A stretch of 40,000 nucleotides of DNA, taken from contig NZ_CP020991.1 in the NCBI RefSeq assembly GCF_002874775.1, positions 2,106,451 to 2,146,450 of the forward strand, read 5' to 3'. The notes beneath the pieces are model-generated. The model was not told the origin of the DNA. It made no database searches and saw only the letters and a program-made list of their open reading frames with translations. The DNA comes from Monoglobus pectinilyticus (GTDB taxonomy: Bacteria > Bacillota > Clostridia > Monoglobales > Monoglobaceae). Positions 1 to 37,504 of the stretch are shown here, one piece after another. How positions within the stretch are numbered: the first letter of the stretch is position 1; each line of letters starts with the position of its first letter. The position numbers and the translations under genes are program-made.

Positions 1-1
1 G

Positions 2-208
2 GATTATCAGAATGAATTTTATCAAGCTCATAAATATGACCTGAAAAGGCAAACTTTAGAAAATCTCAAAAATTTAGAGGATATATTAAGAATACCGAGT
101 GTGGAATTGTGTCTAGAAGTATATGCAGAAATATTATCCGAACTTAAGCAAGATGAAAAGAACAATATACAAAAAATGATGAAAAAGAAAGGCGATAATA
201 ATGAGTAG
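2..208 (+). CDS. Hypothetical phage protein, 3' fragment (start lies left of window)
   Basis: Open frame entering from the window edge (DYQNEFYQAHKYDLKRQTLENL...KKKGDNNE), stop TAG 206-208. No recognisable motif. Confidence 0.45.
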   Translation, partial: DYQNEFYQAHKYDLKRQTLENLKNLEDILRIPSVELCLEVYAEILSELKQDEKNNIQKMMKKKGDNNE

Positions 209-412
209 AAATTACATATGAAAAATTGTTTTAGAAGGTAACAAATGCATTGCGTTACAAAAATGAGATTATTTCTAAATGTAAAAACTTAGTTGATAAT
301 ATGAATAAATAATATTATTTAAACAAAAAAACGCCCTGCATATGCGAGGACGCTCGAAAAATAATAAACATATTATATCACATAATAGTGATAAAGTCAA
401 GGAGTGTTAAAT

Positions 413-856
413 ATGCAGGGTGTGACTATAGAAGAAACAAAACAGTGGTTAAATCGTGGTTATAAACTACGAGAGACGATAAGAATTTTAGAAAAAGCGC
501 AAATGCGCGCTTATGACATAGTGACGGGTACGACAATAACACTATCGGAAAGGGTACAGGAAAGTCACGGGAATGGAACAGAGAATAAATTAATTACATA
601 CGCAGATTACTGCAGGCAGATAGACTGTCATAAGACAGATTTATTTGAAATCTTGAAACAAATAACAAATGCAATAATGAAAGTTGAAAACAACATCTAT
701 AAAAACATACTCATATCAAGATACATTAATTTCGAGACATGGGAGAATATATCACAAAATATTGGATATTCATACAGACAAATACTGAGATTGCATGAAA
801 AAGCGCTACGAAAAGTTAAAGATGTCCTTGAATGTCACATTGAAAGTGTGATATAG
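413..856 (+). CDS. Phage late-gene transcriptional activator, sigma-70 region-4-like HTH (ArpU/RinA/DUF1492-type)
   Basis: ATG 413 lies 8 nt after AAGGAG; the track start GTG 404 overlaps that SD. The C-terminal ISRYINFETWENISQNIGYSYRQILRLHEKALRKV reads as a sigma region-4 HTH. Size and position upstream of the packaging genes fit phage late activators. Family recalled from memory. Confidence 0.55.
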   Translation: MQGVTIEETKQWLNRGYKLRETIRILEKAQMRAYDIVTGTTITLSERVQESHGNGTENKLITYADYCRQIDCHKTDLFEILKQITNAIMKVENNIYKNILISRYINFETWENISQNIGYSYRQILRLHEKALRKVKDVLECHIESVI

Positions 857-906
857 TGTATAATGTAGGAAATAAAAAATTTCTCCTTTTTAAATTTTTT
901 TCTATG

Positions 907-935
907 AGCCGTTACCTTATGGGGACGGCTTTTTA
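907..935 (+). terminator. Rho-independent terminator after the late-activator gene
   Basis: AGCCGT (907-912) pairs with ACGGCT (925-930), followed by TTTTT. Confidence 0.55.
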
Positions 936-1023
936 TATTGCGATTTTAGGTCTTGTGGGAATGATACATCATAAATAAATGCTGAGGGGTGGGCGGCTGT
1001 GATGTTAATGGAGGTAATTAATT

Positions 1024-1494
1024 GTGGAAATAATATATAAATCAACAAAAGAAATTAAGCCATATGAAAATAATCCGAGAAATAATAATGAAGCTGTTGA
1101 GAAAGTAGCAGTTAGCATAACAGATTACGGATTTAGGGTGCCAATTATTATTGATAGTAATAATGTAATAGTCGCAGGCCATACAAGGTATAAAGCCGCG
1201 TTAAAAATAGGCTGTGAATCTGTACCATGTATAGTTATTGATGACTTAACACCGGAGCAGATAAGAGCATATAGATTGGTAGACAATAAGACGGCAGAAT
1301 ATTCAAGTTGGGATTTTGAAATGCTTGAAAAAGAATTAAAAAGTTTAGATATAGATATTTCAGAATTTGAATTTCCTGATTTGGGAGAAACATTGGATAT
1401 TTCAGATGATGATTTTTATACAGATGAGACAGTAAAAAATGTTAAAGTGAAATCTATTAAATGTCCGCATTGCGGAGAAATTTTTGAACTATGA
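1024..1494 (+). CDS. ParB N-terminal-domain (ParB/Srx-like nuclease/NTPase) protein; possible DpdB analogue
   Basis: GTG 1024 lies 8 nt after GGAGGT. KPYENNPRNNNEAVEKVAVSITDYGFRVPIIID...VIVAGHTRYKAALKIG matches the ParB N-domain signature. The stop overlaps the next start (ATGA 1491-1494). Confidence 0.8.
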   Translation: MEIIYKSTKEIKPYENNPRNNNEAVEKVAVSITDYGFRVPIIIDSNNVIVAGHTRYKAALKIGCESVPCIVIDDLTPEQIRAYRLVDNKTAEYSSWDFEMLEKELKSLDIDISEFEFPDLGETLDISDDDFYTDETVKNVKVKSIKCPHCGEIFEL

Positions 1495-2255
1495 GAATAT
1501 ATCTTGCTACATCAACTAGTGGCGTTAAAAAAGAACAAAGAAAAGAAATGATAAAATGTTGTAGACCATTATATTTACTAGAGACTTTTTATTCAGGCGA
1601 AAAATGTTGCGCAATGGTTCAGAATGATGTTGGCACGGATAATTTTCTTCTTGACAGTGGAGCATTTTCATATATGAATGGAAAGTCTATAACAGAAAAA
1701 CAAATGGAGGAATATATAGAAAAGTACATCTGCCATATAAAAAAATACAATGTAAGATACTTTTTTGAGATGGATGTTGACTGTATATTTGGTCTTGAAA
1801 AAGTTGAAATTTGGCGTAAAAAAATTGAGAACCAAACTGGTATTAAGTCTATACCTGTGTGGCATAAGTCAAGAGGTATAGACTATTTCAAACGAATGGT
1901 CGATGAATATGATTATATAGCAATAGGCGGTTTCGCGAATGGTGATATAAAGAAGACAGAATATACGTTGATAAACAAAATGGTTAAATATGCGAATGCA
2001 AGAGGAACAAAAGTTCATGGTCTTGGCTTTACGCAAATGAAGCATATATATGATTATCCATTTTATAGCGTAGATAGTTCAACTTGGTGCACAGGAGTTG
2101 TGAGAGGAGGATATCTATATTATTTTGACGGTAAGATAATGAAATATGACATAATAAAAAATGGGAAAAAATTAAATCTATCTATAATGGCTATGCGGTC
2201 ATTTTCAGAATGGGTGAAATTTCAAAAATATCTAAACACAAGGAGAGTAGTATGA
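1491..2255 (+). CDS. dpdA: DpdA-like 7-deazaguanine DNA transglycosylase (TGT superfamily)
   Basis: 254 aa. The LLDSGAFSYM, IAIGGF, VHGLGFT and YSVDSSTW blocks resemble the shortened TGT TIM barrel of DpdA. It is ATGA-coupled to the ParB-like gene upstream and the YhhQ-like gene downstream. Confidence 0.6.
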   Translation: MRIYLATSTSGVKKEQRKEMIKCCRPLYLLETFYSGEKCCAMVQNDVGTDNFLLDSGAFSYMNGKSITEKQMEEYIEKYICHIKKYNVRYFFEMDVDCIFGLEKVEIWRKKIENQTGIKSIPVWHKSRGIDYFKRMVDEYDYIAIGGFANGDIKKTEYTLINKMVKYANARGTKVHGLGFTQMKHIYDYPFYSVDSSTWCTGVVRGGYLYYFDGKIMKYDIIKNGKKLNLSIMAMRSFSEWVKFQKYLNTRRVV

Positions 2256-2920
2256 GAAAAACAGAAAAGAATTTATCAATATTAACAATATTGTTTGTAG
2301 TATCATTAATAATTTCAAATGTAATAACAGGTAAAATCATTAATACCGGTATTCCGTTTTGGGGTTCAGTGATAACGATACCCTGTGCGGTTTTATGCTA
2401 TCCTATAACATTTTTAATTACAGATGTAGTCGGTGAGGTTTGGGGGAAAAATGAAGCAAATCATATAGTAAGATTAGGACTTATTTCACAGATAGCTGCT
2501 ACGATTATAATTATTATTGGGAAATATTTACCTTTTATTGACGCAGAAATGCAACAAGCATATATAAAAATATTAGGACAAAATTGGATATTCGTGATTG
2601 GTTCTTTAACTGCTTATCTAGTAAGTCAGAATCTTGATGTTCATATATTTCATAGATTGCGAGATAAGTATATTAAAAAACATGGCAGTACAAAAGGTGG
2701 TCGCTGGATATGGAATAATGCAAGTACAATGACAAGCCAATTTGTAGACACATTAATTTTTATAACGATAGCTTTTGGATTTGGATTTGGTTGGATATTT
2801 AACAATCAGATTACTCTAATAGGTATGTTGATAGGGCAGTATCTAATTAAGTTGATAATAGCGGCACTTGATACGCCGTTTTTTTATTTTCTGACAAAAA
2901 ATATAAAAGAAATAAATTAG
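2252..2920 (+). CDS. yhhQ: Queuosine-precursor (preQ0/preQ1) transporter, YhhQ/DUF165 family
   Basis: ATG 2252 follows AGGAGA; the track start 2210 lies inside the previous gene. Multi-TM protein with YPITFLITDVVGEVWG, SQNLDVHIFHRLR, NNASTMTSQFVDTLIF and AALDTPFFY blocks typical of YhhQ. Confidence 0.88.
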   Translation: MRKTEKNLSILTILFVVSLIISNVITGKIINTGIPFWGSVITIPCAVLCYPITFLITDVVGEVWGKNEANHIVRLGLISQIAATIIIIIGKYLPFIDAEMQQAYIKILGQNWIFVIGSLTAYLVSQNLDVHIFHRLRDKYIKKHGSTKGGRWIWNNASTMTSQFVDTLIFITIAFGFGFGWIFNNQITLIGMLIGQYLIKLIIAALDTPFFYFLTKNIKEIN

Positions 2921-2923
2921 GCA

Positions 2924-3035
2924 GTGTGGGGTGCTGGTAACGCCCCACACTTACGCTAGAGCACCTACCTCTAACGCAGATAGCCCTTCTCGGCCGAGAT
3001 TGCTACCTGCACCATTATACATGATTTAGAGGTGC
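2924..3035 (+). other. GC-rich structured intergenic element (10-bp hairpin plus a nested three-tier long hairpin that includes the next SD)
   Basis: Hairpin 1: 2924-2933 pairs with 2941-2950. Nested hairpin: ACCTCTA 2967-2973 with TAGAGGT 3027-3033; GCAGATAGC 2977-2985 with GCTACCTGC 3002-3010 (8/9); perfect palindrome TCTCGGCCGAGA 2988-2999. Confidence 0.6.
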
Positions 3036-3043
3036 GATGTCAA

Positions 3044-3235
3044 ATGGAAATAGATACCAAAATAAAAGAAGCGTTAGAAAAACGTGCTTATGGTTTTGAA
3101 ATTGAAGAAAAAGAGTTTATAAAAAATAAGAATAATGAAAATACTGGGAGAATAAAAGTAACAAAAAAATATATTCCCCCGGATGTAACTGCTTTAAGAA
3201 CGATTTTGCAATTAAAGCAGGCAGGGAAATGGTGA
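3044..3235 (+). CDS. Small protein homologous to the C-terminal half of the small terminase (no HTH)
   Basis: ATG 3044, with SD AGAGGTG at 3028-3034. ALEKRAYGFEIEEKEF...KKYIPPDVTALRTILQLKQAGKW aligns by eye with TerS residues ALLKRALGYIVEEKKI...IKHIPGDTTAQIFWLKNRKPNKW. Confidence 0.6.
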   Translation: MEIDTKIKEALEKRAYGFEIEEKEFIKNKNNENTGRIKVTKKYIPPDVTALRTILQLKQAGKW

Positions 3236-3239
3236 GGTT

Positions 3240-3704
3240 ATGGCAAAGGGCAAATATAAAAAATGGTTGAAACCTGAAAATTTATTATTAATAGAGGGCT
3301 GGGCTAGAGATGGATTGGTTGATGAGCAAATAGCGCATAACATGGGTATAGCGTGTTGTACCCTGTATGAGTGGAAAAATAAATATGCAGAGATAGACGA
3401 GACCTTAAAAAAGGGTAAAGAGGTAGTAGATTTAGAGGTTGAGAATGCACTGCTTAAACGAGCGCTAGGTTACATAGTAGAAGAAAAGAAGATTGAGGAG
3501 AATGGTATAGGTGGAGAAAAAACTATAACTACTATAAAGCATATACCTGGAGATACTACAGCACAAATATTTTGGCTTAAAAATCGTAAGCCAAATAAGT
3601 GGAGAGATAAACCAACAACAGAAGACAATACACAAGACCAAAACATAATTATTAATATTAGTCCGGCTACAACAAACGATATGGAAGATAGTTATGGAGA
3701 TTAA
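3240..3704 (+). CDS. terS: Terminase small subunit
   Basis: N-terminal HTH-like DEQIAHNMGIACCTLYEWKNKY. The C-terminal IPGDTTAQIFWLKNRKPNKWRDK motif is typical of Firmicute phage TerS. Lies directly upstream of and overlapping terL. Confidence 0.8.
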   Translation: MAKGKYKKWLKPENLLLIEGWARDGLVDEQIAHNMGIACCTLYEWKNKYAEIDETLKKGKEVVDLEVENALLKRALGYIVEEKKIEENGIGGEKTITTIKHIPGDTTAQIFWLKNRKPNKWRDKPTTEDNTQDQNIIINISPATTNDMEDSYGD

Positions 3705-4920
3705 TTTAAAAGTCAATAAGGTATATATACCTTATTTACAAAAACCACAATTTACACAGATATATTACGGCGGTTCCTCAAGCGGAAAGTCGTTTTTTTT
3801 ATGTCAAAAAATTATTATTGATAATATGAATGGTTGTAATTGGCTTATATGTAGAGCGGTCGGCAAAAGTATTAAACGTTCAGTTTTTAATGAAATCTAT
3901 AAAGCTATTAATTATATGGAACTTAGTAATTTATATAGCTTTAATTTTTCGGATATGGTTATTACAAACAAGGTAAATCAAGCGCAAATAGTCTTTGCCG
4001 GATTAGATGACGTTGAGAAATTAAAGAGTATAACACCACGAAAGGGCGTTATAGAACGAATATTTATTGAGGAAGCTACAGAAGTCAAAAGAAATGATTA
4101 TTTGCAACTCAAGAAGCGTTTGCGTGGACCGTCTAAAATAAGCAAATGTATTGTTATGGCTTTCAACCCTATTTTCAAATTACATTGGATTTATAATGAT
4201 TTTTTCGACAATAAGGTTGAAGACGGTTGCAAGAAATATGAAGATAAAAAAGTATCTATTTTAAAGACTACATATAAAGATAATATATTTCTTACAACTC
4301 AGGATATAGAAGCGTTAGAAGACGAAAGTGACCCATATTTTCACAATGTATATACATTAGGCAATTGGGGAGTTCTTCAAGGTCTCGTATATAAGAAATT
4401 TGTAGAGAAATTCTTTAATGTTTACGAAATTAGCAAAAGACCTGGAGTAGTATCGGCGTTTGGACTTGATTTTGGGTACACAAACGACCCTTCAGCTTTA
4501 TTCTGCGGATTGGTAGACGAAAAAAATAAGGAGATATATGTATTTGACGAGTTATACGAAAGGGGACTGACCAACATGGAATTGGCTCCAAAAATACAAC
4601 TAATGGGTTACGGCAAAGAAAAAATAATAGGTGACAGTGCTGTACCTCAAACGATTGAAGAATTAAGGCAATTAGGATTATCAAGGATAGAGGGAGCGTA
4701 CAAACATGAGGTTATGTACGGAATACAAAAACTTATGAATTTCACCTTTATTATACACCCTAAATGCAGAAACTTTATAAACGAAATTAATAATTACTCA
4801 TACGCCGAAAAAGACGGAGAGAGTATCAATAAACCAATAGATAAGTTTAACCACTTAATGGACGCTATGCGATATGCGGTTATCCCGAAATTAGAGGGAG
4901 ATGTATTTAGCTTTAAGTAG
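3694..4920 (+). CDS. terL: Terminase large subunit (PBSX-type)
   Basis: Walker A YYGGSSSGKSFF near the N-terminus, IFIEEATE Walker B-like motif, nuclease half with DFGYTNDPSA. 408 aa. Confidence 0.9.
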   Translation: MEINLKVNKVYIPYLQKPQFTQIYYGGSSSGKSFFLCQKIIIDNMNGCNWLICRAVGKSIKRSVFNEIYKAINYMELSNLYSFNFSDMVITNKVNQAQIVFAGLDDVEKLKSITPRKGVIERIFIEEATEVKRNDYLQLKKRLRGPSKISKCIVMAFNPIFKLHWIYNDFFDNKVEDGCKKYEDKKVSILKTTYKDNIFLTTQDIEALEDESDPYFHNVYTLGNWGVLQGLVYKKFVEKFFNVYEISKRPGVVSAFGLDFGYTNDPSALFCGLVDEKNKEIYVFDELYERGLTNMELAPKIQLMGYGKEKIIGDSAVPQTIEELRQLGLSRIEGAYKHEVMYGIQKLMNFTFIIHPKCRNFINEINNYSYAEKDGESINKPIDKFNHLMDAMRYAVIPKLEGDVFSFK

Positions 4921-4932
4921 CAGGAGGATAAA

Positions 4933-6426
4933 ATGTTTAATTTTTACGAAGAAACGCAGAGAATTATTAATATTATATCAAAAGGCGCAAATAAAGCGCC
5001 AACTATGAAAAGAATAGCGGAAATAGAATTAAATAAATATAAGCAGAGCAAAAAGCGTAAAAAAATGCTTACAGGAATAAATTATTATGATGGAAAACAT
5101 GAGATACTCAAAAAAAAGCGACTTGCCATTGAAGAGGGCGGTCAGGCTTCCGAACAGCACTATTTGCCTAATTCTAAAATAATTAATAATCAATATCGCA
5201 AAGCTGTAGACCAAAAGTCTAATTTTCTTTGCGGTCGCCCTATAGCAATTGACACGGATAACGATAAATATACCGACGAACTTAATAAGATATTTGACGA
5301 AAATTTTCATGCAATACTTAAACAGACGGCAAAAAACGCTTTAAATTGTGGTATATCATGGCTATATCCGTATATCAACGATAGAGGAGAGTTTTCCGTC
5401 AAAATATTCTCAGGTATTGAGATATTACCATTTTGGCAAGATGAAGAGCACAGATATATAGATATGGCTTGCAGATTATATGTTATCCCAACATATGAGG
5501 GGGAAAACGAAAAAGATGTGGAGCATGTTGATATATTCTTGCCTGAGGGGATTGAATATTATATATATGAAAATGGAAAATTAGTGATTGATTCTGAGCG
5601 TGAACCTGAACCATATCTTACATACAAAGATAAAGATGATAATGTTATATCTCTGAGTTGGGATAAAATACCGCTCATACCATTTAAATATAACTACGAG
5701 GAACAACCGCTTATAGAAAGGGTACAATCAATACAAGACGCAATAAATCTAATAATGTCAAATTTTGAAGATAACATGCTTCAAGACCCTTATAATACTA
5801 TATATGTATTGCTTAATTATGACGGTGCGGATTTAGAAGAATTTCGACATAATATTGCGCAGTATGGAGCGGTAAAAATAAGGTCCGTTAATGGTATTGA
5901 TGGAAATGTAAGCACTATAGAAGTAAAGGTGGACAGCGAAAATTATAAAGCTATCCTAGACCAATTAAAAAAAGCGTTAATAGAAAACGCAATGAGTTAT
6001 GATGCAAAAGACGACAGGCTTGGCGGTAATGCAAACCAAATGAATATACAGAGCATATATAATGATATTGACCTTGATGCTAATGGTATGGAGTTAGAAT
6101 TTCAAAGAGCGTTAAAAGAATTATTGTGGTTTGCTGATATGTATTTATACAATACTACAGGTCAGGATTTTACGAACGAAAAAGTAAAATTTGTATTCAA
6201 CCGCGATATGATGATGAACGAAAGTGAAATAATGACAATGCTTCAAAATTTAGGAGTGCAAATTTCACAAAAAACATTAATTTCTCAAGTGCCTTGGATA
6301 GATGACGTTGAAAAGGAATTGAGAAGAGTTGAAGAGGAATACAATACAACGAACAACGATGAGTATAATAACTTAGTCAATCAGATGAGAGGTGAAAGCG
6401 GTGATTTAGGAAATGCCGAAGAATGA
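4933..6426 (+). CDS. Portal protein (SPP1 gp6-like)
   Basis: 497 aa directly after terL, SD AGGAGG. INYYDGKHEIL motif and acidic C-terminus are typical of SPP1-family portals. Confidence 0.8.
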   Translation: MFNFYEETQRIINIISKGANKAPTMKRIAEIELNKYKQSKKRKKMLTGINYYDGKHEILKKKRLAIEEGGQASEQHYLPNSKIINNQYRKAVDQKSNFLCGRPIAIDTDNDKYTDELNKIFDENFHAILKQTAKNALNCGISWLYPYINDRGEFSVKIFSGIEILPFWQDEEHRYIDMACRLYVIPTYEGENEKDVEHVDIFLPEGIEYYIYENGKLVIDSEREPEPYLTYKDKDDNVISLSWDKIPLIPFKYNYEEQPLIERVQSIQDAINLIMSNFEDNMLQDPYNTIYVLLNYDGADLEEFRHNIAQYGAVKIRSVNGIDGNVSTIEVKVDSENYKAILDQLKKALIENAMSYDAKDDRLGGNANQMNIQSIYNDIDLDANGMELEFQRALKELLWFADMYLYNTTGQDFTNEKVKFVFNRDMMMNESEIMTMLQNLGVQISQKTLISQVPWIDDVEKELRRVEEEYNTTNNDEYNNLVNQMRGESGDLGNAEE

Positions 6427-7975
6427 AAAAATAGAAAAGTTACTTAAACGCAACGGCGAATATTGGTCGGGGCGTTTTTTGTATCTTGAAAAAGTACAAA
6501 GTAATAAAAATATAGAATACTTTCACAATCTTGAAAAACAGTACAATGAAGCTGTGCAGACGGTAACAAACGATATAAATAACTGGTATATGCGATTTGC
6601 TGAAAACAATAAAATAACATTTACAGAAGCAAAAAGATTATTAAATGCAAAAGAACTTAAAGAATTTAAATGGACTGTGGAAGAGTATATACAGAAAGGC
6701 AAAGAAAACGCCCTAAATAAACAGTGGGTAAAACAGCTTGAAAATGTTAGTGCTAGGGTACATATTAATCGTCTAGAGAGCCTTAGAATACAAATGCAGA
6801 ATCAGGTTGAGGTATTAATGGGTAATGAGTTAGATGATATAAGCAATCTTATAACTGACATATATCAAGATACCTATTATCGTTCTATTTTTGAAATACA
6901 AAAGGGTTTTGGAGTAGGGAGCAGCTTTGCAAAATTAGATACAAAATTAATTGAAAACTATATACATAAGCCCTGGACACCCGACGGCAAAAATTTCAGT
7001 GAAAGAATTTGGGGTACTCATAGACCCCAGCTTGTGAGAGAACTTGAAACAACGTTAACACAGTCAGTTATCAGAGGGGAGCAGCCTAAAAAAATAGCCG
7101 CTAAGATAGCAAAACGATTTGAGGTGAAGAAACATCAAGCCGAAAATCTTGTATTGACAGAAACAGCATTTTTCAAATCAAAATCTACATTGGACGGATT
7201 TAGAGAAATGGGAGTTAAAGAATATCAGAACGACGCAACTTTAGATAACAAAACATCTGATATATGCCAACATATAGACGGGACACATTTTTTAGTATCC
7301 GAGTATAAGCCGGGGATTACGGCACCGCCTTTTCATAATCGTTGCCGGACTGTTGCAATACCGTATTTTAACGATGAATTTACGGTCAATGAAACAAGGG
7401 CGGCGAGGGACAAGGATGGGGATATATACTCAGTGCCGGGTGATATAAAATATGCAGAATGGAAAAATAAATATGTTGAGGATTCTATATCAGATAATGA
7501 CCGTAAGTTATTTAATAAATATGTAACAATTCTAGGACTAAATGCGCCTACTATTGACGAATTTGTGAAAATGAGGTATAATAAAAAAGAGTGGGGACAG
7601 TTTACATCTTATTCGAGTTCAATAAAATCCGGTGAATTATCTCCTTTGGCTACATTTGAATTATATAAAAGTATCAGCAAAAAAATTGATGATAACTTAA
7701 TAGGCACTATTACAAGCAATGGAATAAAGATAACAGATAAATCTAAGCATTTTATATCAAGAGTAATAGGGTCGGTTGAGCAGAGGCGTAACGGCGTAAA
7801 TGTCAAAGATGTATTAGACGTGCTTCAAAATCCTGCAAGATTAGGTGATATTAGAAAGTTGAAGAATGGAAAAAGCCAAAGATTTATTGGCGACTTATTA
7901 ACGGCTACTGTTAATCCTGATACCGGAGTGTTAATACAGGTTAACCCAACAACTAGAAGAAAGGGGTTTAAGTGA
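6413..7975 (+). CDS. Head morphogenesis protein, MuF/SPP1 gp7 family, with an extra C-terminal toxin-like (BECR/RelE-fold-like) domain
   Basis: MuF core: ERIWGTHRPQLVRELETTLTQSVIRGEQ...TETAFFKSKS...DNKTSDICQHIDGTHF...PPFHNRCRT. An extra ~190 aa ends in KSKHFISRVIGSVEQRRNGVNVKDVLDVLQNP...GKSQRFIGD...VNPDTGVLIQVNP. Confidence 0.8.
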   Translation: MPKNEKIEKLLKRNGEYWSGRFLYLEKVQSNKNIEYFHNLEKQYNEAVQTVTNDINNWYMRFAENNKITFTEAKRLLNAKELKEFKWTVEEYIQKGKENALNKQWVKQLENVSARVHINRLESLRIQMQNQVEVLMGNELDDISNLITDIYQDTYYRSIFEIQKGFGVGSSFAKLDTKLIENYIHKPWTPDGKNFSERIWGTHRPQLVRELETTLTQSVIRGEQPKKIAAKIAKRFEVKKHQAENLVLTETAFFKSKSTLDGFREMGVKEYQNDATLDNKTSDICQHIDGTHFLVSEYKPGITAPPFHNRCRTVAIPYFNDEFTVNETRAARDKDGDIYSVPGDIKYAEWKNKYVEDSISDNDRKLFNKYVTILGLNAPTIDEFVKMRYNKKEWGQFTSYSSSIKSGELSPLATFELYKSISKKIDDNLIGTITSNGIKITDKSKHFISRVIGSVEQRRNGVNVKDVLDVLQNPARLGDIRKLKNGKSQRFIGDLLTATVNPDTGVLIQVNPTTRRKGFK

Positions 7976-8172
7976 TGAATATTACTGAAAAACAAAAAGA
8001 ACTTGTGAAAAAATATTTGAAAAAGTCATATACTGAAATATATCAACTCCTGTTAGATTTAGATGATAAAATAACAGAAATTGGTTTTGATGAGAATTAC
8101 GACATTAACGAAGAGGGCATATTATTGCAAAGGCTATATGATGACCTCTATTATCAAAATTCTGAAATATAA
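7975..8172 (+). CDS. Small acidic protein, candidate immunity partner of the MuF C-terminal domain
   Basis: ATG 7975 overlaps the MuF stop (TGATG). 65 aa, acidic, helical-looking. Followed immediately by a terminator. Confidence 0.55.
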   Translation: MNITEKQKELVKKYLKKSYTEIYQLLLDLDDKITEIGFDENYDINEEGILLQRLYDDLYYQNSEI

Positions 8173-8225: not shown

Positions 8226-8399
8226 ATGATTAAATGGGCGTTACCGATTTTACAAGTAGTCTTTATTATCTGCAAGGTGTTCAATTTATTAAATTGGAGT
8301 TGGAGTATAGTTTTCATACCGAGTTATATTTGGCTGACTGTATTCTTTATATTCCTAGTTTTCTGTTTAATATTTATATATTTGGGGGGCAAAAGATGA
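8226..8399 (+). CDS. 57-aa two-TM membrane protein (not in the ORF track, below its size cutoff)
   Basis: ATG 8226 lies 5 nt after GAGGTG. Translation MIKWALPILQVVFIICKVFNLLNWSWSIVFIPSYIWLTVFFIFLVFCLIFIYLGGKR. Its stop overlaps the next ATG (ATGA 8396-8399). It is a more plausible reading than the N-terminal half of track ORF 8234-8587. Confidence 0.55.
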   Translation: MIKWALPILQVVFIICKVFNLLNWSWSIVFIPSYIWLTVFFIFLVFCLIFIYLGGKR

Positions 8400-8587
8400 A
8401 GTGCCCGTATAAAGATAATAGATTTGAAAATACAACATCAAAATATATCTATGACGAAGACGGAAGTCTAATAGAAAATAAAATAACGACGTGTACCGCT
8501 TCTACTTTTGGAAAGTGTGACGGCGAAGAGTGCGCAGCATATAAAGATGGTGTATGTCAATATGTATTGGTCGAAAAGGGAGGTTGA
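8396..8587 (+). CDS. 63-aa cysteine-containing small protein
   Basis: MKCPYKDNRFENTTSKYIYDEDGSLIENKITTCTASTFGKCDGEECAAYKDGVCQYVLVEKGG. Five Cys. Translationally coupled to the preceding membrane-protein ORF. Confidence 0.5.
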   Translation: MKCPYKDNRFENTTSKYIYDEDGSLIENKITTCTASTFGKCDGEECAAYKDGVCQYVLVEKGG

Positions 8588-8633
8588 GAGTTAATGGCAA
8601 GAGAGCCAACTGGAAATAAATTTAATAATGATT

Positions 8634-8657
8634 GAGCCGCATAAGGCTCTTTTTTTA
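8634..8657 (+). terminator. Rho-independent terminator
   Basis: GAGCC (8634-8638) pairs with GGCTC (8645-8649), followed by T8. Confidence 0.7.
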
Positions 8658-8762
8658 TGTGCAAAATTCGTCTTTTTGGTATTGCAGACGTAAAAGAACA
8701 AGACTGATAGCCGCGGACTATACCGCGTATAAAAAATGTAATCAAGAAAGGTGTAGTGTTTA

Positions 8763-26390: not shown

Positions 26391-27806
26391 ATGGCTACAA
26401 CTACAAAAATATACGGTTTAAAAAAACCGTCATTAACAGATGTTTATAACATTATGGATTTTAATAACAATTTTGATAAAATTGACACTGTTTTAAATAC
26501 AAAAACAGAAATAGAAGATATAGGGACACTGAACGGCACCGAAAGCGTATTTAATACACGAATAAGTCCAGGTTTTTATAAAGGAATATGGAATAATCAG
26601 TCCATGAAGCAAAAGGGAGATTTTACGCTTTTTGTTTTTGATGTCTCCTCTACTAATACGGCAGAAGATACAAAGGAAACAGTAGTAATGCAAGTTTTAT
26701 TTCATGAAAATCAAGTCTCGGTCCGTTTGGGTGTGTTAGGTGTTCCGGCGAATTGGGGTAATTTCTCTCCGATAGCAACAATGTCTAATATATCAAACAT
26801 AGAACAAAAGATAGGCAATTTATCAAATCTTACTACAACGGCTAAAACAAATATCGTTACAGCGATAAATGAGTTGATAACGTCAATATCAAAAAAAGCG
26901 GATAAAGTTACAAATAACGGATTTATAGCCGGAGGAGCGGAGGCCGGAAAACTCGGAAGTATATCAATAGGAAGTGGTATAGGCTCCACCGGAGAATATG
27001 GAATAGCAATTGGCGCAGGAGCAGAAGGGGCAAATGACAGTGTGGCGATTGGACATGGGTCAATTGCTTCCGGGATTGATTCCGTTGCAATAGGAGATGT
27101 AGCGGAAAGTTTGGCTCAAAATGCTGTGCAAATATGCGAAGGCAGTAACAGCGAAAGTGAAAGTCTGCAATTTAGAAAATATAAAATAGTTAGATATGAT
27201 ACCACAGACGATGAATATTATTTGAAAGATGTTGGCAGGTTGAGCCGATTATATACTACTAATCGGTCAAACATCGTTGAAGCAATTAATGAATTAGACA
27301 ATGAAGCGGAAAATAACACAACTGAATTACTATCAAAAATAACGGAACAAAATAATAGCTTGATAATGCTGATACAAATGCTTGCTAATACTGGGATTAA
27401 CATAGTTCCATTACTCGAAATGCTGGGTAACACTATTACCGTTATTTCTGATACTGTAACTCAAATATATCAATACTCTGACAATAATAATCCTGATAAT
27501 AAATTAAAAGGAATTGTTTATGCACCAAATCTTGAAACAGTTGAATCACGTTCGATAGACGATAATTCAGGCATGACAACAATAATCATGCCAAAAGTCA
27601 AGACAATTAAAAGTCAAGGCTTTTGGGCTAGTTATGGACTTAAAACGGTCTTTATACCTAATGCTTGTACATCTCTTGCCACTAACGCATTTTCTATGTG
27701 TGGAAATTTAACTAACATATATATTGATAATGTCGAAGGTACATTTGGAGATATAGCAGCAGATTCAAGTTTGCCTAATTTAAAAGTTACATATTTAAAA
27801 AAGTGA
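26391..27806 (+). CDS. Tail fibre: conserved fibre N-terminus, YadA-head-like Gly/Ala repeats, coiled coil, C-terminal BspA-type LRR tip
   Basis: N-terminal KIYGLKKPSLTDVYNIMDFNNNFDKID. Centre GSISIGSGIGSTGEYGIAIGAGAEGANDSVAIGHGSIASGIDSVAIGD. C-terminal IIMPKVKTIKSQGFWASYGLKTVFIPNACTSLATNAFSMCGNLTNIYI. Confidence 0.75.
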   Translation: MATTTKIYGLKKPSLTDVYNIMDFNNNFDKIDTVLNTKTEIEDIGTLNGTESVFNTRISPGFYKGIWNNQSMKQKGDFTLFVFDVSSTNTAEDTKETVVMQVLFHENQVSVRLGVLGVPANWGNFSPIATMSNISNIEQKIGNLSNLTTTAKTNIVTAINELITSISKKADKVTNNGFIAGGAEAGKLGSISIGSGIGSTGEYGIAIGAGAEGANDSVAIGHGSIASGIDSVAIGDVAESLAQNAVQICEGSNSESESLQFRKYKIVRYDTTDDEYYLKDVGRLSRLYTTNRSNIVEAINELDNEAENNTTELLSKITEQNNSLIMLIQMLANTGINIVPLLEMLGNTITVISDTVTQIYQYSDNNNPDNKLKGIVYAPNLETVESRSIDDNSGMTTIIMPKVKTIKSQGFWASYGLKTVFIPNACTSLATNAFSMCGNLTNIYIDNVEGTFGDIAADSSLPNLKVTYLKK

Positions 27807-28368: not shown

Positions 28369-30720
28369 ATGATAATTGATTATAAAGTTGATTCGCAAAT
28401 TTTACGCAGAACCAGCAGAAATTTAATAGTGGCGGACAGCATAAAATATTTGGCTGTCCGTTTTAATTTTTCTGATGAATGGAAAGGCACTAAAAAGACA
28501 GTTGTTTTTTTATATGATGGATATAGCTATAATGTTCTTTTGGATGAAAACGAAATAGCGATTGTGCCGCATGAAGTTATAAAAAGTCCTGGATTTAATT
28601 TATCTGCATATGGCACGAATAACGGAATGCGAATAACAACTAACACATGCAAAGTATCTGTTATAAAGAGTGGATATTGTGAGGGAGAAACACCACCTGA
28701 ACCAACACAAAACGTATATGAGCAAATATTAGATAGATTAGATAATAGCGGTGGAGGAACAGAAAAAAACGGAAAATCAGCTTATGAAATAGCCGTAGAG
28801 AATGGATTTAACGGAACTGAAAGTGAATGGTTAGAAAGCCTAAAAGGTCAGCCGGGCAAAGACGGAATAAACGGAGCAGACGGCAAAGACGGAGCAGATA
28901 TAACAGCTATAAATGATTCCGAAACCTCATCAGAGACCACGTGGAGCAGTGCGAAAATCACTACTGCTAATACGGAACTCCAAACACAAATTAATAATAC
29001 ATACAATCATCACCTGAATGATAGTAACAATATAGGCAATGAGGTATATAACGGAGCGGTTCTTACTATAGTTGACGATGATGGGTCTATAGAGTTTTTA
29101 AATAATTTTGTACCGATATATAAGGATAAGGGTGTTAGGTGCAGTTTTGCGGTAGTTGCTTGCAGAGCAGAAACACCAATAGGTACAACGACAAGCGGCG
29201 ACCCTTACGAGGCTTTAAGCTGGACACAAATAAAAGAACTTGTTCACGATGGATTTGATATGCAAAGTCACACATATAGTCATGATGTTAAAGTGTTTCG
29301 AACAGGCGAAAATTTAAACGAAGAACAACTTGAACATCAATTCGGTGACGCTGATAGATTGTTTCGAGAAAATGGACTTGATTATAACTGTATGGTATAT
29401 CCATGGGGTACGGCTCAAGCAATCAAAAAAAGGGTTGCAAAACGATACGCCAAATATGGAATGACGTTGATTAGTGGGGATACGGGACTAAATGATGAAA
29501 TAAATGAGCCTATGGCAATATCAAGATACACATTGCAGAGCGGTTCAACAAGTTTAGCAAGTGCTAAATCTCAAATTGACACAGCCATTGCCAATAAGCA
29601 ATGGCTTATATTATGCACTCACGCAAATGCAAATCAACCCAGTGCTGATACATTGGGATATATTATTGATTATGCCATAAGTAAAAAAATGCGTATAGAA
29701 ACGTTTTCTAAAGCCGCAAGGCTCAAGGCTCCGGTGTATTACGCAGGCGATGGCGACAATATGTTCCGGGTCATGCCAAATGGTGACACAAAATGCAAGC
29801 CTGACGATGATACTGTAAGATATATAGTGCAAAGGGCTACCGCATTAGGATTATTTGAGGACACGGAAGCAAGCATATCGGCAAGTTACGGAAAAACACA
29901 AAACATAGCAGGTGACACATTGGATAAGTCGCTTATAACAGTAACTGTGACGATGACAAGCGGGAAAGAAAACATTGTAACCGATTATGCTGTAGAAGAA
30001 ACGGATTTAACGTTGTCAGAGGGCGAAAATACGTATCATATAAAATATAAAGGACTTAGTTGCACATTAACAGTAACAGCGATAGCGGCGGCAGAAGCCG
30101 CAGAAATTACACAACAGCCGCAAGATGTAACAACAGAAGTTGGCGAAACTGCAAATATGTCAATAATAGCAAAAGGTACAGGCTTGACTTATAAATGGCA
30201 GTGGCTTGATGTGAGAGGCGACAACCCTGTTGGTACATGGACTAATTGTGCAGACGGCACATCAAGCATATTGCAATTTATAGCGGAACAATATCATAAT
30301 TTACGCAAATACAGATGTATCGTGACAAGCGGTATAGGAGAAACACTAACGTCAGATATTGCAACATTGCATATAGGAAGCAATTACAGCACATTAATAG
30401 AGCACACCTCTGAATCAGAAGCTATCGAACGAACATGGTACAGTATTCCTTTATCAGCCGGTGCGTATCGTTTTCGGGCAACAGTGGAGAAAGCCGAATA
30501 TGCTTGTACTTTTCAGCTTAAAACAGCAGTTAATAATGTAGATGATAAAAATGGCACGGTTATGTTTATCGCGCCAACAGGCACGTTTAACGCCGCAAGC
30601 GCAATATATACGTTTGAGGGTGATTTTACGTTAGAATCAGGCACGGAATACCTATTTTTGTACACAAAAGGAATTACTGCCGGGAAAACAATAACTATTG
30701 AATATTATAAAACTAATTAG
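28369..30720 (+). CDS. Large tail fibre/receptor-binding protein with collagen-like hinge, CE4 (NodB) polysaccharide deacetylase domain, Ig-like domain and C-terminal beta-sandwich
   Basis: KGQPGKDGINGADGKDGAD hinge. NodB motifs TIVDDDG, HTYSH, VYPWG, LILCTH. Ig-like ITQQPQDVTTEVGETANMSIIAKGTGLTYKWQW...YRCIVTS. Confidence 0.75.
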   Translation: MIIDYKVDSQILRRTSRNLIVADSIKYLAVRFNFSDEWKGTKKTVVFLYDGYSYNVLLDENEIAIVPHEVIKSPGFNLSAYGTNNGMRITTNTCKVSVIKSGYCEGETPPEPTQNVYEQILDRLDNSGGGTEKNGKSAYEIAVENGFNGTESEWLESLKGQPGKDGINGADGKDGADITAINDSETSSETTWSSAKITTANTELQTQINNTYNHHLNDSNNIGNEVYNGAVLTIVDDDGSIEFLNNFVPIYKDKGVRCSFAVVACRAETPIGTTTSGDPYEALSWTQIKELVHDGFDMQSHTYSHDVKVFRTGENLNEEQLEHQFGDADRLFRENGLDYNCMVYPWGTAQAIKKRVAKRYAKYGMTLISGDTGLNDEINEPMAISRYTLQSGSTSLASAKSQIDTAIANKQWLILCTHANANQPSADTLGYIIDYAISKKMRIETFSKAARLKAPVYYAGDGDNMFRVMPNGDTKCKPDDDTVRYIVQRATALGLFEDTEASISASYGKTQNIAGDTLDKSLITVTVTMTSGKENIVTDYAVEETDLTLSEGENTYHIKYKGLSCTLTVTAIAAAEAAEITQQPQDVTTEVGETANMSIIAKGTGLTYKWQWLDVRGDNPVGTWTNCADGTSSILQFIAEQYHNLRKYRCIVTSGIGETLTSDIATLHIGSNYSTLIEHTSESEAIERTWYSIPLSAGAYRFRATVEKAEYACTFQLKTAVNNVDDKNGTVMFIAPTGTFNAASAIYTFEGDFTLESGTEYLFLYTKGITAGKTITIEYYKTN

Positions 30721-31278: not shown

Positions 31279-32139
31279 ATGGCAAAGATATACATAGACC
31301 CAGGGCACAACCCAACCGGAAACGATACGGGAGCCGTAGGTTACGGACTAAAAGAACAAGACGTATCTGTGCAAATTGGAGTATTACTTAGAAATATGCT
31401 GATTAACAGCGGACAAACGGTAAAAATGAGCCGTGAAAATATAACTGATACGGTAGCGCATGAGTTAAACGCCAGTCTTGCAGGTAGGTACAACGCCGCC
31501 AATAGCTGGAACGCCGATATATTTGTCTCAATTCATTGCAATGCGGCAAATACAAAAGCGTATGGCTGTGAGACATATTACTGTACAGGCAGTACTCAGG
31601 GCAGGGCGTTAGCTGAGTGCGTACAGCCGCATATGGCCGCGGAGACGGAAAGGTATAACAGAGGTGTCAAATCCGCTAATTTTGCGGTTATAAGACACAC
31701 GAACATGCCTGCTATACTGGTAGAAACTGCATTTATAGACAATTATGACGATAACAGATTTTTAGCAAGTGAGGACGGAAAATATAAATGTGCGGTTGCG
31801 ATATATAAAGGTATATGCGACTATTTAGGAATAGAATATAAATTGGAAAGCGAGGACGAACTAATGAGCAGAGAATATGAAGAATTAAAGGCAGAAAACG
31901 ACCGTCAGAATGACATAATTAACCAAATGGGAACAGAACTTGAAGAATTGAGAAACACTGCAAAATCTGTAATTTATGATTACGTGGACGACAATATGCC
32001 GGAATGGGCTAGACCGACAATACAAAAGTTGGTTGACAAGGGATTTTTAAAAGGTGATGAAGAGGGCAAGCTGGGGCTTACTTATGACTTGATGAGAATG
32101 TTAATAATTAACGACCGCGCCGGGGTTTATGGGAAGTAA
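31279..32139 (+). CDS. Endolysin, N-acetylmuramoyl-L-alanine amidase (Amidase_3) with coiled coil and C-terminal wall-binding-like module
   Basis: YIDPGHNP, KEQD, FVSIHCNA and LVETAFIDN motifs. C-terminal VIYDYVDDNMPEWARPTIQKLVDKGFLKGDEEGKLGLTYDLMRML. Confidence 0.9.
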   Translation: MAKIYIDPGHNPTGNDTGAVGYGLKEQDVSVQIGVLLRNMLINSGQTVKMSRENITDTVAHELNASLAGRYNAANSWNADIFVSIHCNAANTKAYGCETYYCTGSTQGRALAECVQPHMAAETERYNRGVKSANFAVIRHTNMPAILVETAFIDNYDDNRFLASEDGKYKCAVAIYKGICDYLGIEYKLESEDELMSREYEELKAENDRQNDIINQMGTELEELRNTAKSVIYDYVDDNMPEWARPTIQKLVDKGFLKGDEEGKLGLTYDLMRMLIINDRAGVYGK

Positions 32140-34299: not shown

Positions 34300-35403
34300 T
34301 TAATCAAAACAATTAAAACAATCATAACAATAATATGGTAATTTGTCAGTGTTGATTTTAATGTTGTCGGGAACGGATACATTTTTAAGATTTTTACAAC
34401 CAGCGAAAACACGATTTTTAATCTCTGTTTCGCTATTATAAATCTTTAATGTTTTTAATCCGGTGCAATCCGCAAAAGCGGCGAATCCAATTGTGATAAC
34501 GCTATCAGGAATTATTATGCTTTCTAATCTTTTACAAAACCAAAAAGCATATTCTCCAATTTCGGTAATATTATTAGGAATTATTATTGTTTGTAAATTA
34601 TAACAATTTTTAAAAGCATAATCCCCAATCCGTTCCGTTTCGTTTGACATGGTTACACTAGTCAGACTAGTACAATCACTAAAAGCGGAAGATTCTATTG
34701 AGATTACACTATGTGGAATAACTATACTAGTCAGACTAATACAGCCACTAAATGTACAGTGTTCTATCACTGTTACGTTGGGAATTTTTATACTTTTGAG
34801 ATTTGTACAATCTTGAAAAGCATAATCCCCAATCCATGTTACTTTTTTTGGTATGTTTATCGTTTCTAGACTTTCACAATTTTCAAAAGCACCACGCCCT
34901 ATGTATTCTATACAATCAGGTATAGTTATGTTTTTTAAGCTTGTACATTCTCGAAATGTACCGCCTGATATATAATTAAGACTATCAGGGAGTATTACAT
35001 TAACAAGATTCTCACAACCTCTAAACGCTTCACCGCCTATCAAGGCTAATCCCTCAGGCAACGTAATTTTCTTTAGATTTTCGCAATCTTTGAAAGAACG
35101 ATACCCAATTGTGATTATACTATCAGGAAGTACTATGCTTTCTAGACTTTCACAAAATTGAAAAGCATAATCTCCAATTTCTTCTAAGTTTTCTGAAAGT
35201 TTAATGCTTTTTAAATTATAACAAGTTTCAAATGCACAATCTCCTATTTTGATAACGCTATCAGGAATTGTTATGCTTTCTAAACTTGTGCGAACCCAAA
35301 AAGCATGATTCTTAATTTCGGTAACATTATCTGGAATATCAAATGTTCCATTTATTATATCCTCATCGTCTACTTCAATTAAAATATTGTTTTCTATTTT
35401 CAT
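34300..35403 (-). CDS. BspA-type leucine-rich-repeat (LRR_5-like) protein, 367 aa, no signal peptide
   Basis: About 13 repeats of the pattern [IV]xIPxx[IV]xxIGxxAFxxCxxLxx[IV], e.g. ITIPDSVIKIGDCAFETCYNLKSIKL. Acidic N-terminus MKIENNILIEVDDEDIINGT. Cys-rich tail PYYCYDCFNCFD. Confidence 0.8.
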   Translation of the reverse strand: MKIENNILIEVDDEDIINGTFDIPDNVTEIKNHAFWVRTSLESITIPDSVIKIGDCAFETCYNLKSIKLSENLEEIGDYAFQFCESLESIVLPDSIITIGYRSFKDCENLKKITLPEGLALIGGEAFRGCENLVNVILPDSLNYISGGTFRECTSLKNITIPDCIEYIGRGAFENCESLETINIPKKVTWIGDYAFQDCTNLKSIKIPNVTVIEHCTFSGCISLTSIVIPHSVISIESSAFSDCTSLTSVTMSNETERIGDYAFKNCYNLQTIIIPNNITEIGEYAFWFCKRLESIIIPDSVITIGFAAFADCTGLKTLKIYNSETEIKNRVFAGCKNLKNVSVPDNIKINTDKLPYYCYDCFNCFD

Positions 35404-35428
35404 TATAAATCCTCCTTTTAATTTTTAT

Positions 35429-36214
35429 TTACATCTTCAAAGCTTCGTTCCATGAAATACGTCTTACCAATTTAATAGTATTAGTGACATATATATCATC
35501 AATTAACTCCTTTTCAATAATATCACCCGGTTCAACCTCAAATAAAGCAATATTACTTAAATTGCCATGCCAATAATTAAATACATCGTATAGATTTTTA
35601 ACATAATGATATCCTCTTCTAAAACATTTTATATTATCAATAATAGGCATTTGTCTGCCTATGTCGTACTCCGTATCACGATATGAATAAGTTATTTTAT
35701 TTTCATCGCATATAATATCACATGCTTTGAAATTTCCTTTTTTTATTAGGTTTTCACAATGAACAAATGCGCTGTCACCTATGCGTTTTATGCTATCTGG
35801 GATATTTATTGAACTTAAATTTTCACAATTAGAAAACGCACATGCTCCAATTTCTGTAACACCGTTAGGAATAATTAGTGATTGCAAATTTGTGCAACCG
35901 TCGAACGTTAAATCACCGATTCGTTTCACACTATTAGGAATATTTATATATTCTAAATCTGTGCAATGTCGGAATGTCCAGTTATCTATATATGTGATCC
36001 CATCAGGTATGTGTACTGATTTTAAAAAGTTGCATTCTGCAAATGCGCCGCTCCAAATATATTTAACGTTATTAGGAATGTCAATAGATGTTAAATTTTT
36101 GCGACCTTCAAACGCATCACTGCCTATCTCTGTAACATTGTCAGGAATTATTACTGTTCCGTTTTCTATATCTTCATAAAAAACTTTTTTTAAAATATTG
36201 TTTTCTATTATCAT
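35429..36214 (-). CDS. BspA-type LRR (LRR_5-like) protein, 261 aa, with a distinct C-terminal domain (GYHY...EVEPG motif); no signal peptide
   Basis: The N-terminal ~150 aa are LRR_5-like repeats. The C-terminal part is FKACDIICDENKITYSYRDTEYD...CFRRGYHYVKNLYDVFNYWHGNLSNIALFEVEPGDII. Confidence 0.8.
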   Translation of the reverse strand: MIIENNILKKVFYEDIENGTVIIPDNVTEIGSDAFEGRKNLTSIDIPNNVKYIWSGAFAECNFLKSVHIPDGITYIDNWTFRHCTDLEYINIPNSVKRIGDLTFDGCTNLQSLIIPNGVTEIGACAFSNCENLSSINIPDSIKRIGDSAFVHCENLIKKGNFKACDIICDENKITYSYRDTEYDIGRQMPIIDNIKCFRRGYHYVKNLYDVFNYWHGNLSNIALFEVEPGDIIEKELIDDIYVTNTIKLVRRISWNEALKM

Positions 36215-37412: not shown

Positions 37413-37488
37413 TGGTGACCCATCGGAGATTCGAACTCCGGACACCTTGATTAAAAGTCAAGTGCTCTGCCAACTGAGCTAATGAGTC
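37413..37488 (-). tRNA. tRNA-Lys (anticodon UUU), CCA encoded
   Basis: Reverse complement GACTCATTAGCTCAGTTGGCAGAGCACTTGACTTTTAATCAAGGTGTCCGGAGTTCGAATCTCCGATGGGTCACCA folds as a cloverleaf. Anticodon loop CTTTTAA. Confidence 0.93.
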
Positions 37489-37504
37489 ATATTTAGTTTT
37501 TTAA

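Follow-up and report, generated by a model that had tools for sequence, protein, structure and literature searches.

Modification of phage DNA with 7-deazaguanines is already known, as is the idea, dating from 2019, that some phages salvage the precursor base (PMC6884629). The same study reported that some phages encode the transporter YhhQ and that the preQ0 pathway is missing from the Clostridium hosts of DpdA-only phages (PMC6884629). Phage CAjan has yhhQ in its cluster and yet can dispense with it, preQ0 being made de novo (PMC7544227). In bacteria, DpdA of S. Montevideo needs the NTPase (nucleoside triphosphatase) activity of the ParB-superfamily ATPase DpdB for insertion of preQ0 (PMC10164549); DpdB itself belongs to the DndB family and has a DGQQR motif and, at its C-terminus, an SspE-like domain (PMC10164549, PMC12235509). 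For mycobacteriophage CRB2, the ParB-like neighbour of DpdA, ORF1, has been suggested to be a dpdB homologue (PMC6392294), and the role of the ParB N-domain (ParBc) beside DNA-modifying enzymes has been called unknown (PMC12783734). Here we analyse three adjoining genes, parB-like, dpdA and yhhQ, at positions 1024-2920 of a 40,000-nucleotide stretch of the Monoglobus pectinilyticus genome (assembly GCF_002874775.1, contig NZ_CP020991.1, positions 2,106,451 to 2,146,450 of the forward strand), referred to below as the window.

We consider it probable that this trio constitutes a phage-encoded, salvage-type 7-deazaguanine DNA-modification module. A first-pass annotation of the DNA had proposed the same reading, and homology, fold, co-conservation and the failure to detect que genes now support it. 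What was computed is the structure of the genes, their homologies, the protein folds, residue conservation and co-conservation across loci; what the proteins do, which base is used and how the ParB-type protein contributes are inferred from these.

The proteins of the trio

The middle gene (1491-2255, + strand, from the open reading frame (ORF) list and the raw sequence) encodes a 254 amino acid protein that matched phrog_887, ‘queuine tRNA-ribosyltransferase’, with an E-value of 2.2e-47. The DpdA of phage 9g, which we take to be the first of the phage DpdA family to have been characterised by experiment, belongs to this PHROG as well (2e-98). In tblastn searches, 140 phage records were recovered, including 9g itself (27.5% identity over 76% of the query, E = 5e-11), mycobacteriophages with proteins annotated DpdA-like, and Fusobacterium phage phiFN37 (41%). 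The AlphaFold2 model, built from a 26-sequence alignment, is a TIM barrel with a pLDDT of 89.1 and a pTM of 0.87. When it was compared with the PDB using Foldseek, the top 15 matches were all bacterial tRNA-guanine transglycosylases (TGTs; E = 5e-7, TMq ~0.65), with generic TIM barrels ranking lower, so that the TGT-like fold expected of this protein was recovered. The best matches in BFVD were phage queuine tRNA-ribosyltransferases (E = 3e-18, TMq 0.71-0.81), and a remoter match was a Cellulophaga phiST protein of the DpdA3 type. Because a sequence search of the PDB with the DpdA profile returned only a spurious hit to Homer, the family assignment rests on PHROG, tblastn and fold, which together place the protein in the phage DpdA family of the TGT superfamily.

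Residues D55, D95, H125, G146-G147, H176-G-x-G and D195 are invariant among 79 non-redundant relatives and are also common to the DpdAs of 9g, Typha and phiFN37. The DSGAF (D55), GGF (G146-G147) and DSSTW (D195) motifs on which the gene had first been called DpdA-like are all present, and that call is strengthened by the PHROG and the conserved Asp motifs shared with 9g DpdA. The putative catalytic residues are Asp55 in the DSGAF motif (nt 1653-1655, + strand) and Asp195 in the VDSSTW motif (nt 2073-2075, + strand), and further motifs are G146-G147 and H176-G-L-G. This mapping rests on alignment, not on structure superposition. Locally, hhalign places LLDSGAFS of DpdA on LTDSGGFQ of E. coli TGT, the DSGG-motif segment alone being aligned. 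Matches to the NCBIfam and PADLOC DpdA models (PADLOC, 6e-5) are confined to residues 139-197, which fall on model positions ~198-255, leading into Asp256; the catalytic aspartates of S. Montevideo DpdA are Asp95 and Asp256. The conserved residues support an active enzyme, and on these resemblances it is highly probable that the protein acts on DNA with a 7-deazaguanine.

Several unusually long relatives were seen. In the representative library, P0275 has five tandem N-terminal ‘MxIYLA...’ DpdA segments before a complete DpdA, and P0281 and P0312 continue past the stop codon of dpdA into a yhhQ that is first out of frame and then in frame. None of the three is a clean natural ParB-DpdA or DpdA-YhhQ fusion, and they are probably frameshift or assembly artefacts. 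Two BFVD entries matched by the DpdA model, A0A6J5RUN9 (424 aa, ‘ParB/Sulfiredoxin’, uncultured Caudovirales phage; E = 2e-3) and A0A6G5XZE9 (449 aa; E = 1.3e-17), are of sufficient length for a putative ParB-DpdA fusion.

The first gene (1024-1494, + strand, again from the ORF list and the raw sequence) has a GTG start, with GGAGG at 1010-1014, and encodes 156 amino acids. It had been annotated as a ParB N-domain protein, in agreement with a Pfam ParB_N match above cutoff (8.9e-8); phrog_620 was matched at 6.6e-52. The N-domain was modelled by AlphaFold2 with a pLDDT of 88-96, and Foldseek aligned it to Noc, ParB-CDP/CTPgS, KorB and sulfiredoxin with an rmsd (root-mean-square deviation) of 2.0-2.4 Å over ~93 residues (matches 7ng0, 6sdk and 7bnr, E ~3e-6). 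The sequence profile aligns to CDP-bound B. subtilis ParB (6SDK; E = 7.8e-7), pairing NNPRNN with PNPYQPR, AGHTRYKAA with AGERRFRAA and DN with EN. Each of the three nucleotide-binding boxes of ParB (PxxPR, GERRxRAA and ENxxR) thus has a counterpart here, although Thr stands for the first Arg of GERR and box III reads D-N-K. The AGHTR motif (G52-R55) is encoded at nt 1177-1188 (+ strand), and the protein also has a DNK box. Past residue ~95 there follow only short helices, then an acidic linker modelled with low confidence and, at the very end, a conserved CPxCG knuckle or CxxC hairpin, here CPHCG (C147/C150, nt 1462-1473, + strand). Neither a helix-turn-helix DNA-binding domain nor a dimerisation domain was found, the Foldseek and hidden Markov model (HMM) alignments ending at about residue 90. 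As modelled, then, the first gene encodes a ParB/Srx-fold N-domain protein with a C-terminal CxxC knuckle. This tail may dock DpdA or dimerise the ParB-type protein. An intersubunit zinc site, formed by the tail and Cys40 of DpdA, was considered and rejected, as no covariation between Cys40 and the tail was seen.

The closest isolated-phage relatives of the ParB-type protein are the N-termini (~130 residues, 46-60% identity) of ParB-DNA-methyltransferase fusions found in Streptococcus, Lactobacillus and Staphylococcus phages. PADLOC likewise matched it to the N-terminal part of MTase_II (4e-25), with a weak match to typeIV_Cas6 (0.023). By homology, it is assigned to a ParBc module that is otherwise fused to phage DNA methyltransferases. 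The first-pass description of the protein as a stripped-down DpdB did not hold: PADLOC gave no DpdB match at E<=1, Pfam gave ParB_N and not DndB, the motif is AGHTR and not DGQQR, and the C-terminal domain is absent, so we rejected orthology with DpdB. The ParB/Srx fold and the adjacency to DpdA back the statement that it works like DpdB, not that it is DpdB, and by this analogy it would at most be a functional analogue.

The third gene (2252-2920, + strand) encodes 222 amino acids from an ATG at 2252. The mechanical ORF call begins at 2210, which is probably too long; ATG 2252 is favoured because a Shine-Dalgarno sequence, AAGGAGAG, can be read directly at 2240-2247 (+ strand), within the dpdA 3′ end. 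The protein matched Pfam Vut_1 (2.5e-45, 155 bits against a cutoff of 27.2), TIGR00697, ‘queuosine precursor transporter’ (130.5 bits, cutoff 50.95), and phrog_4899 (8.5e-44); the E. coli YhhQ-type equivalog NF008406 was not reached (50.1 bits, cutoff 252). These profiles identify a YhhQ/COG1738 family queuosine-precursor (preQ0/preQ1) transporter, as the confident earlier call of a YhhQ/DUF165 importer had it. In bacteria, YhhQ is a salvage transporter for tRNA queuosine. Here, there is a good likelihood that it supplies the base for DNA modification. HMMs for QueC, QueD, QueE, FolE and DpdC/DUF6884 gave no hits in six-frame translations of the window and of 10 kb to its left (two contigs). 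The earlier statement that the window holds no folE, queD, queE or queC therefore stands, and extends to the DNA on the left; for the amidotransferases that it also listed as absent (Gat-QueC, ArcS, QueF-L), no separate search was made. The literature on Monoglobus and queuosine yielded nothing relevant.

The genes overlap by ATGA start/stop sequences on the + strand, read directly at 1491-1494 (parB-like/dpdA) and 2252-2255 (dpdA/yhhQ). Both overlaps lie exactly where they had first been placed and are accompanied by internal ribosome-binding sites, an arrangement that marks the three as translationally coupled genes.

Co-conservation and precursor supply in related loci

Searching with an alignment of DpdA relatives brought up 80 loci from IMG/VR and 26 from genomes, 106 in all. 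These were processed by ORF calling, iterative HMM searches and clustering at 70% DpdA identity, giving 32 clusters. A ParB-like ORF lies directly upstream of dpdA, on the same strand, in every cluster that has upstream sequence (31/31), and the commonest junction is a 4-bp overlap. The adjacency spans DpdA identities from 99% down to ~35% and is seen in Clostridia, Veillonella, Persephonella, Methanolobus and Acidobacteriota metagenome-assembled genome contigs, in loci whose terminases are 24-53% identical to that of the window or undetected. The arrangement is far beyond chance.

YhhQ was found in 19 clusters by ORF search and additionally in L036 and L098 by tblastn; a count of ParB-dpdA pairs followed by YhhQ gave 18 clusters, or 20 with L036 and L098. 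The clusters without it (about 12) carry QueC, QueD, QueE and FolE straight after dpdA, with Pfam matches to QueC (6.5e-59), PTPS (1.4e-30), radical SAM and GTP cyclohydrolase I (2.8e-69); L064 is the single cluster in which YhhQ and QueC occur together. The conserved core is thus ParB plus DpdA, behind which YhhQ and FolE/QueD/QueE/QueC are interchangeable options for precursor supply. This alternation is strong contextual evidence for 7-deazaguanine chemistry. Co-conservation of the three genes in related phages, which the first-pass annotation had made a test of its reading, was found. As a fixed unit, the trio reduces to the ParB-DpdA core, YhhQ being replaceable by the FolE/QueD/QueE/QueC set.

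Pairwise identity matrices correlate for ParB and DpdA with a Mantel r of 0.68 and for DpdA and YhhQ with an r of 0.58; among deep pairs the correlations are 0.35 and 0.15, respectively. Given the constancy of the pairing, the balance tips towards the ParB-type protein being a required functional partner of DpdA. The family is large, with 3,245 word-indexed homologues and, at 50% identity, 5,827 clusters at E<=1e-3, of which at least 415 are at E<=1e-30. The ParB and DpdA proteins are met again, 95-100% identical, on numerous contigs.

The same genes were recognised in isolated phages. In phiFN37, a ParB-like gene, dpdA (4-bp overlap), a DUF6884 gene and a transporter gene lie within the replication module. 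Faecalibacterium phage Roos encodes, in this order, ParB_N, a small ORF, DpdA and Vut_1, each carrying a hypothetical annotation. In Arthrobacter phage Sonali, a ParB-like gene and dpdA (4-bp overlap) are followed by QueC/QueD/QueE/FolE, and in Mycobacterium phage Typha the order is ParB-like, a small gene, DpdA, a hypothetical gene, QueD, QueE and FolE. The compact ParB-DpdA-transporter architecture singled out at first pass is therefore less singular than it seemed, being present also in phiFN37 and Roos. Sonali has two DpdA-like genes, gp81 (L116:1-113) and gp87 (L116:2483-3373), of which gp87 alone is coupled to the ParB-like gene and to QueC/QueD/QueE/FolE.

Additional genes are inserted in some loci. 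A DUF6884 gene lies between dpdA and the yhhQ or que genes in phiFN37 (L107:4745-5179), L071 (2218-2628) and the L055 cluster, and the inserted genes also give a weak PF03883 match. DUF6884 is the DpdC family (PMC12235509), and phages with this gene are predicted to convert dPreQ0 to dADG. A conserved 103-aa ORF with no Pfam hit is found between dpdA and yhhQ in L050 (6742-7053) and also in L051, L052 and L060; its product may be one more protein with a tailoring or accessory role in the module.

Proposed mechanism and alternatives

In the explanation we favour, the three proteins would be made together at the start of late transcription. YhhQ would insert into the host membrane and import a queuosine precursor base, most likely preQ0 and possibly preQ1. 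After replication, DpdA would swap guanine in double-stranded phage DNA for the imported base, using a two-aspartate transglycosylase mechanism with Asp55 and Asp195. The ParB-type protein would be its obligate partner, binding nucleotide, engaging DNA and recruiting or activating DpdA, a role proposed by analogy with the DpdB ATPase, with CTP-gated ParB clamps and with ParB-methyltransferases, in which the two are joined in cis. The modified virion DNA would then be packaged and would resist restriction on entering the next host. We expect the product to be dPreQ0, or dPreQ1 where preQ1 is the imported base, because no downstream tailoring enzyme such as DpdC, QueF or an amidotransferase was seen (DpdC/DUF6884 being HMM-negative and amidotransferases having had no separate search).

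A number of observations weigh against this explanation. DpdA has no Pfam hit at E<=0.1, and so none to TGT (PF01702); the overall hhalign probability of its profile against E. coli TGT is 0.45%; and the curated bacterial DpdA model NF041059 gave a partial match of 21.6 bits, with a cutoff of 200. No Cys/His cluster is conserved after D195, leaving the protein without the zinc site of TGT and bacterial DpdA, and the solved bacterial DpdA structure is absent from the top 50 fold matches of the model. In the ParB-type protein, the GHTR motif keeps one of the two arginines of GERR, and the missing DpdB match counts on the same side. ParB and YhhQ subtypes are sometimes swapped between lineages. 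Nor is ParB universally needed: in 9g and a Stenotrophomonas phage, dpdA lies between folE and the polymerase clamp gene, with no ParB neighbour. In the DpdA-only phage Orion, no modification was detected (PMC6884629). Finally, a natural deletion variant, L112, has lost dpdA and yhhQ, which makes the module dispensable for lysogeny and means that ParB can persist alone. Being short, without a zinc site and below the NF041059 cutoff, the 254-aa protein was rejected as an orthologue of bacterial DpdA or TGT.

L112 is a variant of the same prophage (8330-8720, corresponding to window 1491-3235) with a 100% identical ParB protein. Its deletion joins dpdA codon 50 to the 3′ end of the 67-aa ORF downstream of the module via a 5-bp CGGAT microhomology, removing the bulk of dpdA together with the whole of yhhQ and the structured spacer behind it; parB is kept and a 66-aa chimeric ORF remains. 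The variant bears on the alternative that survives best, though we regard it as unlikely: that DpdA and YhhQ alone form the module, and that the ParB-like gene is independent, merely sits in the pre-terminase slot and has a product such as a nuclease, a nickase or a protein linked to packaging or partition. That L112 keeps parB without dpdA speaks for this, yet L112 retains the first 50 dpdA codons next to a microhomology junction, which makes it a deletion derivative and not an ancestral ParB-only state; we therefore rejected it as evidence for an independent backbone gene. The pair does lie upstream of terminase genes in most loci examined, and ParB-like genes are widespread in phages, with 500 matching records and three such genes in phiFN37 alone. 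However, the same-strand adjacency in 31/31 clusters persists across varied backbones, phyla and positions, including the replication module of phiFN37. PHROG relatives of the ParB-type protein are annotated ‘partition nuclease’ and DpdAs of the 9g type function without a ParB neighbour, whereas the closest relatives of this ParB module are fused covalently to another class of DNA-modifying enzyme.

A second alternative accepts the genes as read above and holds that the module is silent in the Monoglobus host, as a decaying or conditionally useful passenger; little or no DNA would be modified because host preQ0 synthesis or external precursor is insufficient. The absence of detectable modification in Orion and the mere traces of it in Salmonella phage 7-11 (PMC6884629) set precedents, L112 has deleted dpdA and yhhQ, and no precursor synthesis genes were found in the window or in 10 kb to its left. 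We think this quite improbable: the three ORFs are intact, the catalytic motifs are invariant, ParB and DpdA proteins are found at 95-100% identity on many contigs, and the alternation of YhhQ with QueCDE/FolE argues for selection that maintains precursor supply.

The last alternative is an auxiliary RNA cassette, in which imported queuosine precursors would be inserted into host or phage tRNA, tuning translation during infection; databases label the family ‘queuine tRNA-ribosyltransferase’ in the category ‘moron/auxiliary metabolic gene’, the nearest solved structures are TGTs, and YhhQ serves tRNA queuosine in bacteria. It is very improbable, since the protein groups with phage DpdA (9g), a family required for 7-deazaguanine in DNA (PMC6884629, PMC7544227), has no Pfam TGT hit and, at 254 aa, lacks the zinc subdomain and C-terminal regions of TGTs, and since its obligate neighbour is a DNA-associated ParB module common to DNA methyltransferases.

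Returning to the salvage-type DNA-modification module, the searchable literature holds no description of a systematic ParBc-DpdA coupling, of the identity of this ParBc module with the one fused to phage methyltransferases, or of the way in which YhhQ and FolE/QueDEC replace each other behind one core. These short DpdAs form a large clade in which coupling to a ParBc-type protein is invariable. The pairing parallels the unexplained DpdB requirement of bacterial DpdA as well as the ParBc domains of phage DNA methyltransferases, whose role the literature calls unknown, and with 156 and 254 residues the pair recommends itself as a minimal system in which to study the need of DNA transglycosylases for ParB. 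The choice between YhhQ and FolE/QueD/QueE/QueC offers a supply rule that predicts dependence on salvaged or on self-made precursor. In the gut commensal M. pectinilyticus, phage anti-restriction would be tied to how much queuosine precursor the gut offers. Modification with 7-deazaguanines can also influence how gut phage DNA is cut by restriction enzymes, read by nanopore and other sequencing or targeted by CRISPR. A broader idea, which we put forward as a tentative one, is that ParBc is a general nucleotide-gated DNA-loading adaptor for post-replicative DNA-modifying enzymes, joined in cis in methyltransferases and through translational coupling and the CxxC tail, as a docking or dimerising knuckle, for DpdA. 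If so, such enzymes would be able to range over the entire genome and modify it immediately before it is packaged, the DpdB requirement and the ParBc of phage methyltransferases and CmoX-type enzymes would reflect one mechanism, and the two small proteins described here would be its minimal experimental model.

Genomic setting and comparison with known systems

The window covers a prophage late region, with portal, capsid, sheath and tail genes followed by an amidase endolysin gene (31279-32139), and we propose that the module comprises the first genes of the late (packaging) operon. Upstream of it, an ArpU/RinA-like late transcriptional activator is encoded at 404-856 (+ strand; phrog_36 ‘transcriptional regulator’, 1.5e-17; phrog_248 ‘transcriptional activator’, 1.3e-14), with weak matches to both sigma-70 region 4 and ArpU. 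Between the activator gene and the module, a putative terminator at 906-936 (+ strand) consists of a hairpin with a 7+2 bp stem followed by UUUUU (−14.8 kcal/mol, z = −3.4 in an RNA fold of 898-942). A GC-rich structured spacer occupies 2921-3031 (+ strand), 3′ of yhhQ, in AT-rich surroundings (−44.6 kcal/mol, z = −3.8 in an RNA fold of 2918-3035); a 14-bp hairpin at 2920-2957 (11 + 3 pairs across a 3-nt bulge) lacks a U-run. The spacer probably marks the end of the module; it could serve in processing or termination, or belong to a packaging signal. It is followed at 3032-4920 by the small 67-aa ORF, terS and terL. Rfam models searched against 1-4000 gave no match to the spacer and no credible preQ1 or other riboswitch 5′ of the module, a scan for sigma-70 promoters and terminators gave counts at shuffle level, and megablast of window positions 1-8000 found no match among phage genomes.

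Elsewhere in the window, a tail-region protein with BspA-type leucine-rich repeats (LRRs) and YadA-head repeats is encoded at 26391-27806, and a 783-aa protein with a polysaccharide deacetylase domain at 28369-30720. Two BspA-type LRR proteins are encoded past the endolysin (34300-36214, − strand). Five tRNA genes (Lys, Gln, His, Arg and Gly) at 37413-37874 (− strand) are probably host DNA near the right end of the prophage.

Among isolated phages, phiFN37, Roos, Sonali, Typha and CRB2 carry DpdAs that are only 26-41% identical to that of the window. Unlike the window, phiFN37 adds a DpdC-like gene, with dADG as the predicted product, and has its genes in the replication module, while the actinophages Sonali, Typha and CRB2 make preQ0 themselves. 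The position of the window's trio is taken in Streptococcus prophage EJ-1 by ORF37 (L119:2001-3266), a 421-aa fusion of ParB_N and N6_N4_Mtase, in the order late activator, ParB-enzyme, terS-like ORF38 and terL. This suggests that a common ‘DNA-modification slot’ heads the packaging operon in Firmicutes phages. In both the methyltransferase fusions and the window module, a ParBc accompanies a post-replicative DNA-modifying enzyme. The fusions carry an N6/N4 methyltransferase domain in cis, whereas the window has a separate, translationally coupled transglycosylase; the EJ-1 fusion lacks the CxxC knuckle that is conserved in the stand-alone ParB form.

Phages 9g, CAjan and Pseudomonas iggy, with DpdA of the DpdA1 type, share with the window the DSGAF/GG/HGxG/DSSxW motifs, the TGT-like barrel and phrog_887, and presumably also the purpose, post-replicative 7-deazaguanine modification against restriction. 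They differ in having folE/queD/queE/queC and in the placing of dpdA, which adjoins the DNA polymerase clamp gene and has no ParB neighbour, and 9g also has amidotransferases and a longer DpdA (317 aa, compared with 254 aa in the window). Unlike in CAjan, the importer is the only phage-encoded precursor supply in the window.

In the bacterial Dpd system, as here, the gene for a TGT-superfamily DNA transglycosylase adjoins one for a protein of the ParB/Srx superfamily. Bacterial DpdB is larger and belongs to the DndB family, whereas the protein in the window is a 156-aa ParBc with AGHTR and a CxxC tail. Bacterial DpdA has ~400 residues, a zinc site and specific insertions, in contrast to the 254 residues found here, and the bacterial system includes a restriction operon, dpdD-K, that the window module lacks. 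The Dpd system serves host defence, while the setting of the module in M. pectinilyticus is one of phage counter-defence.

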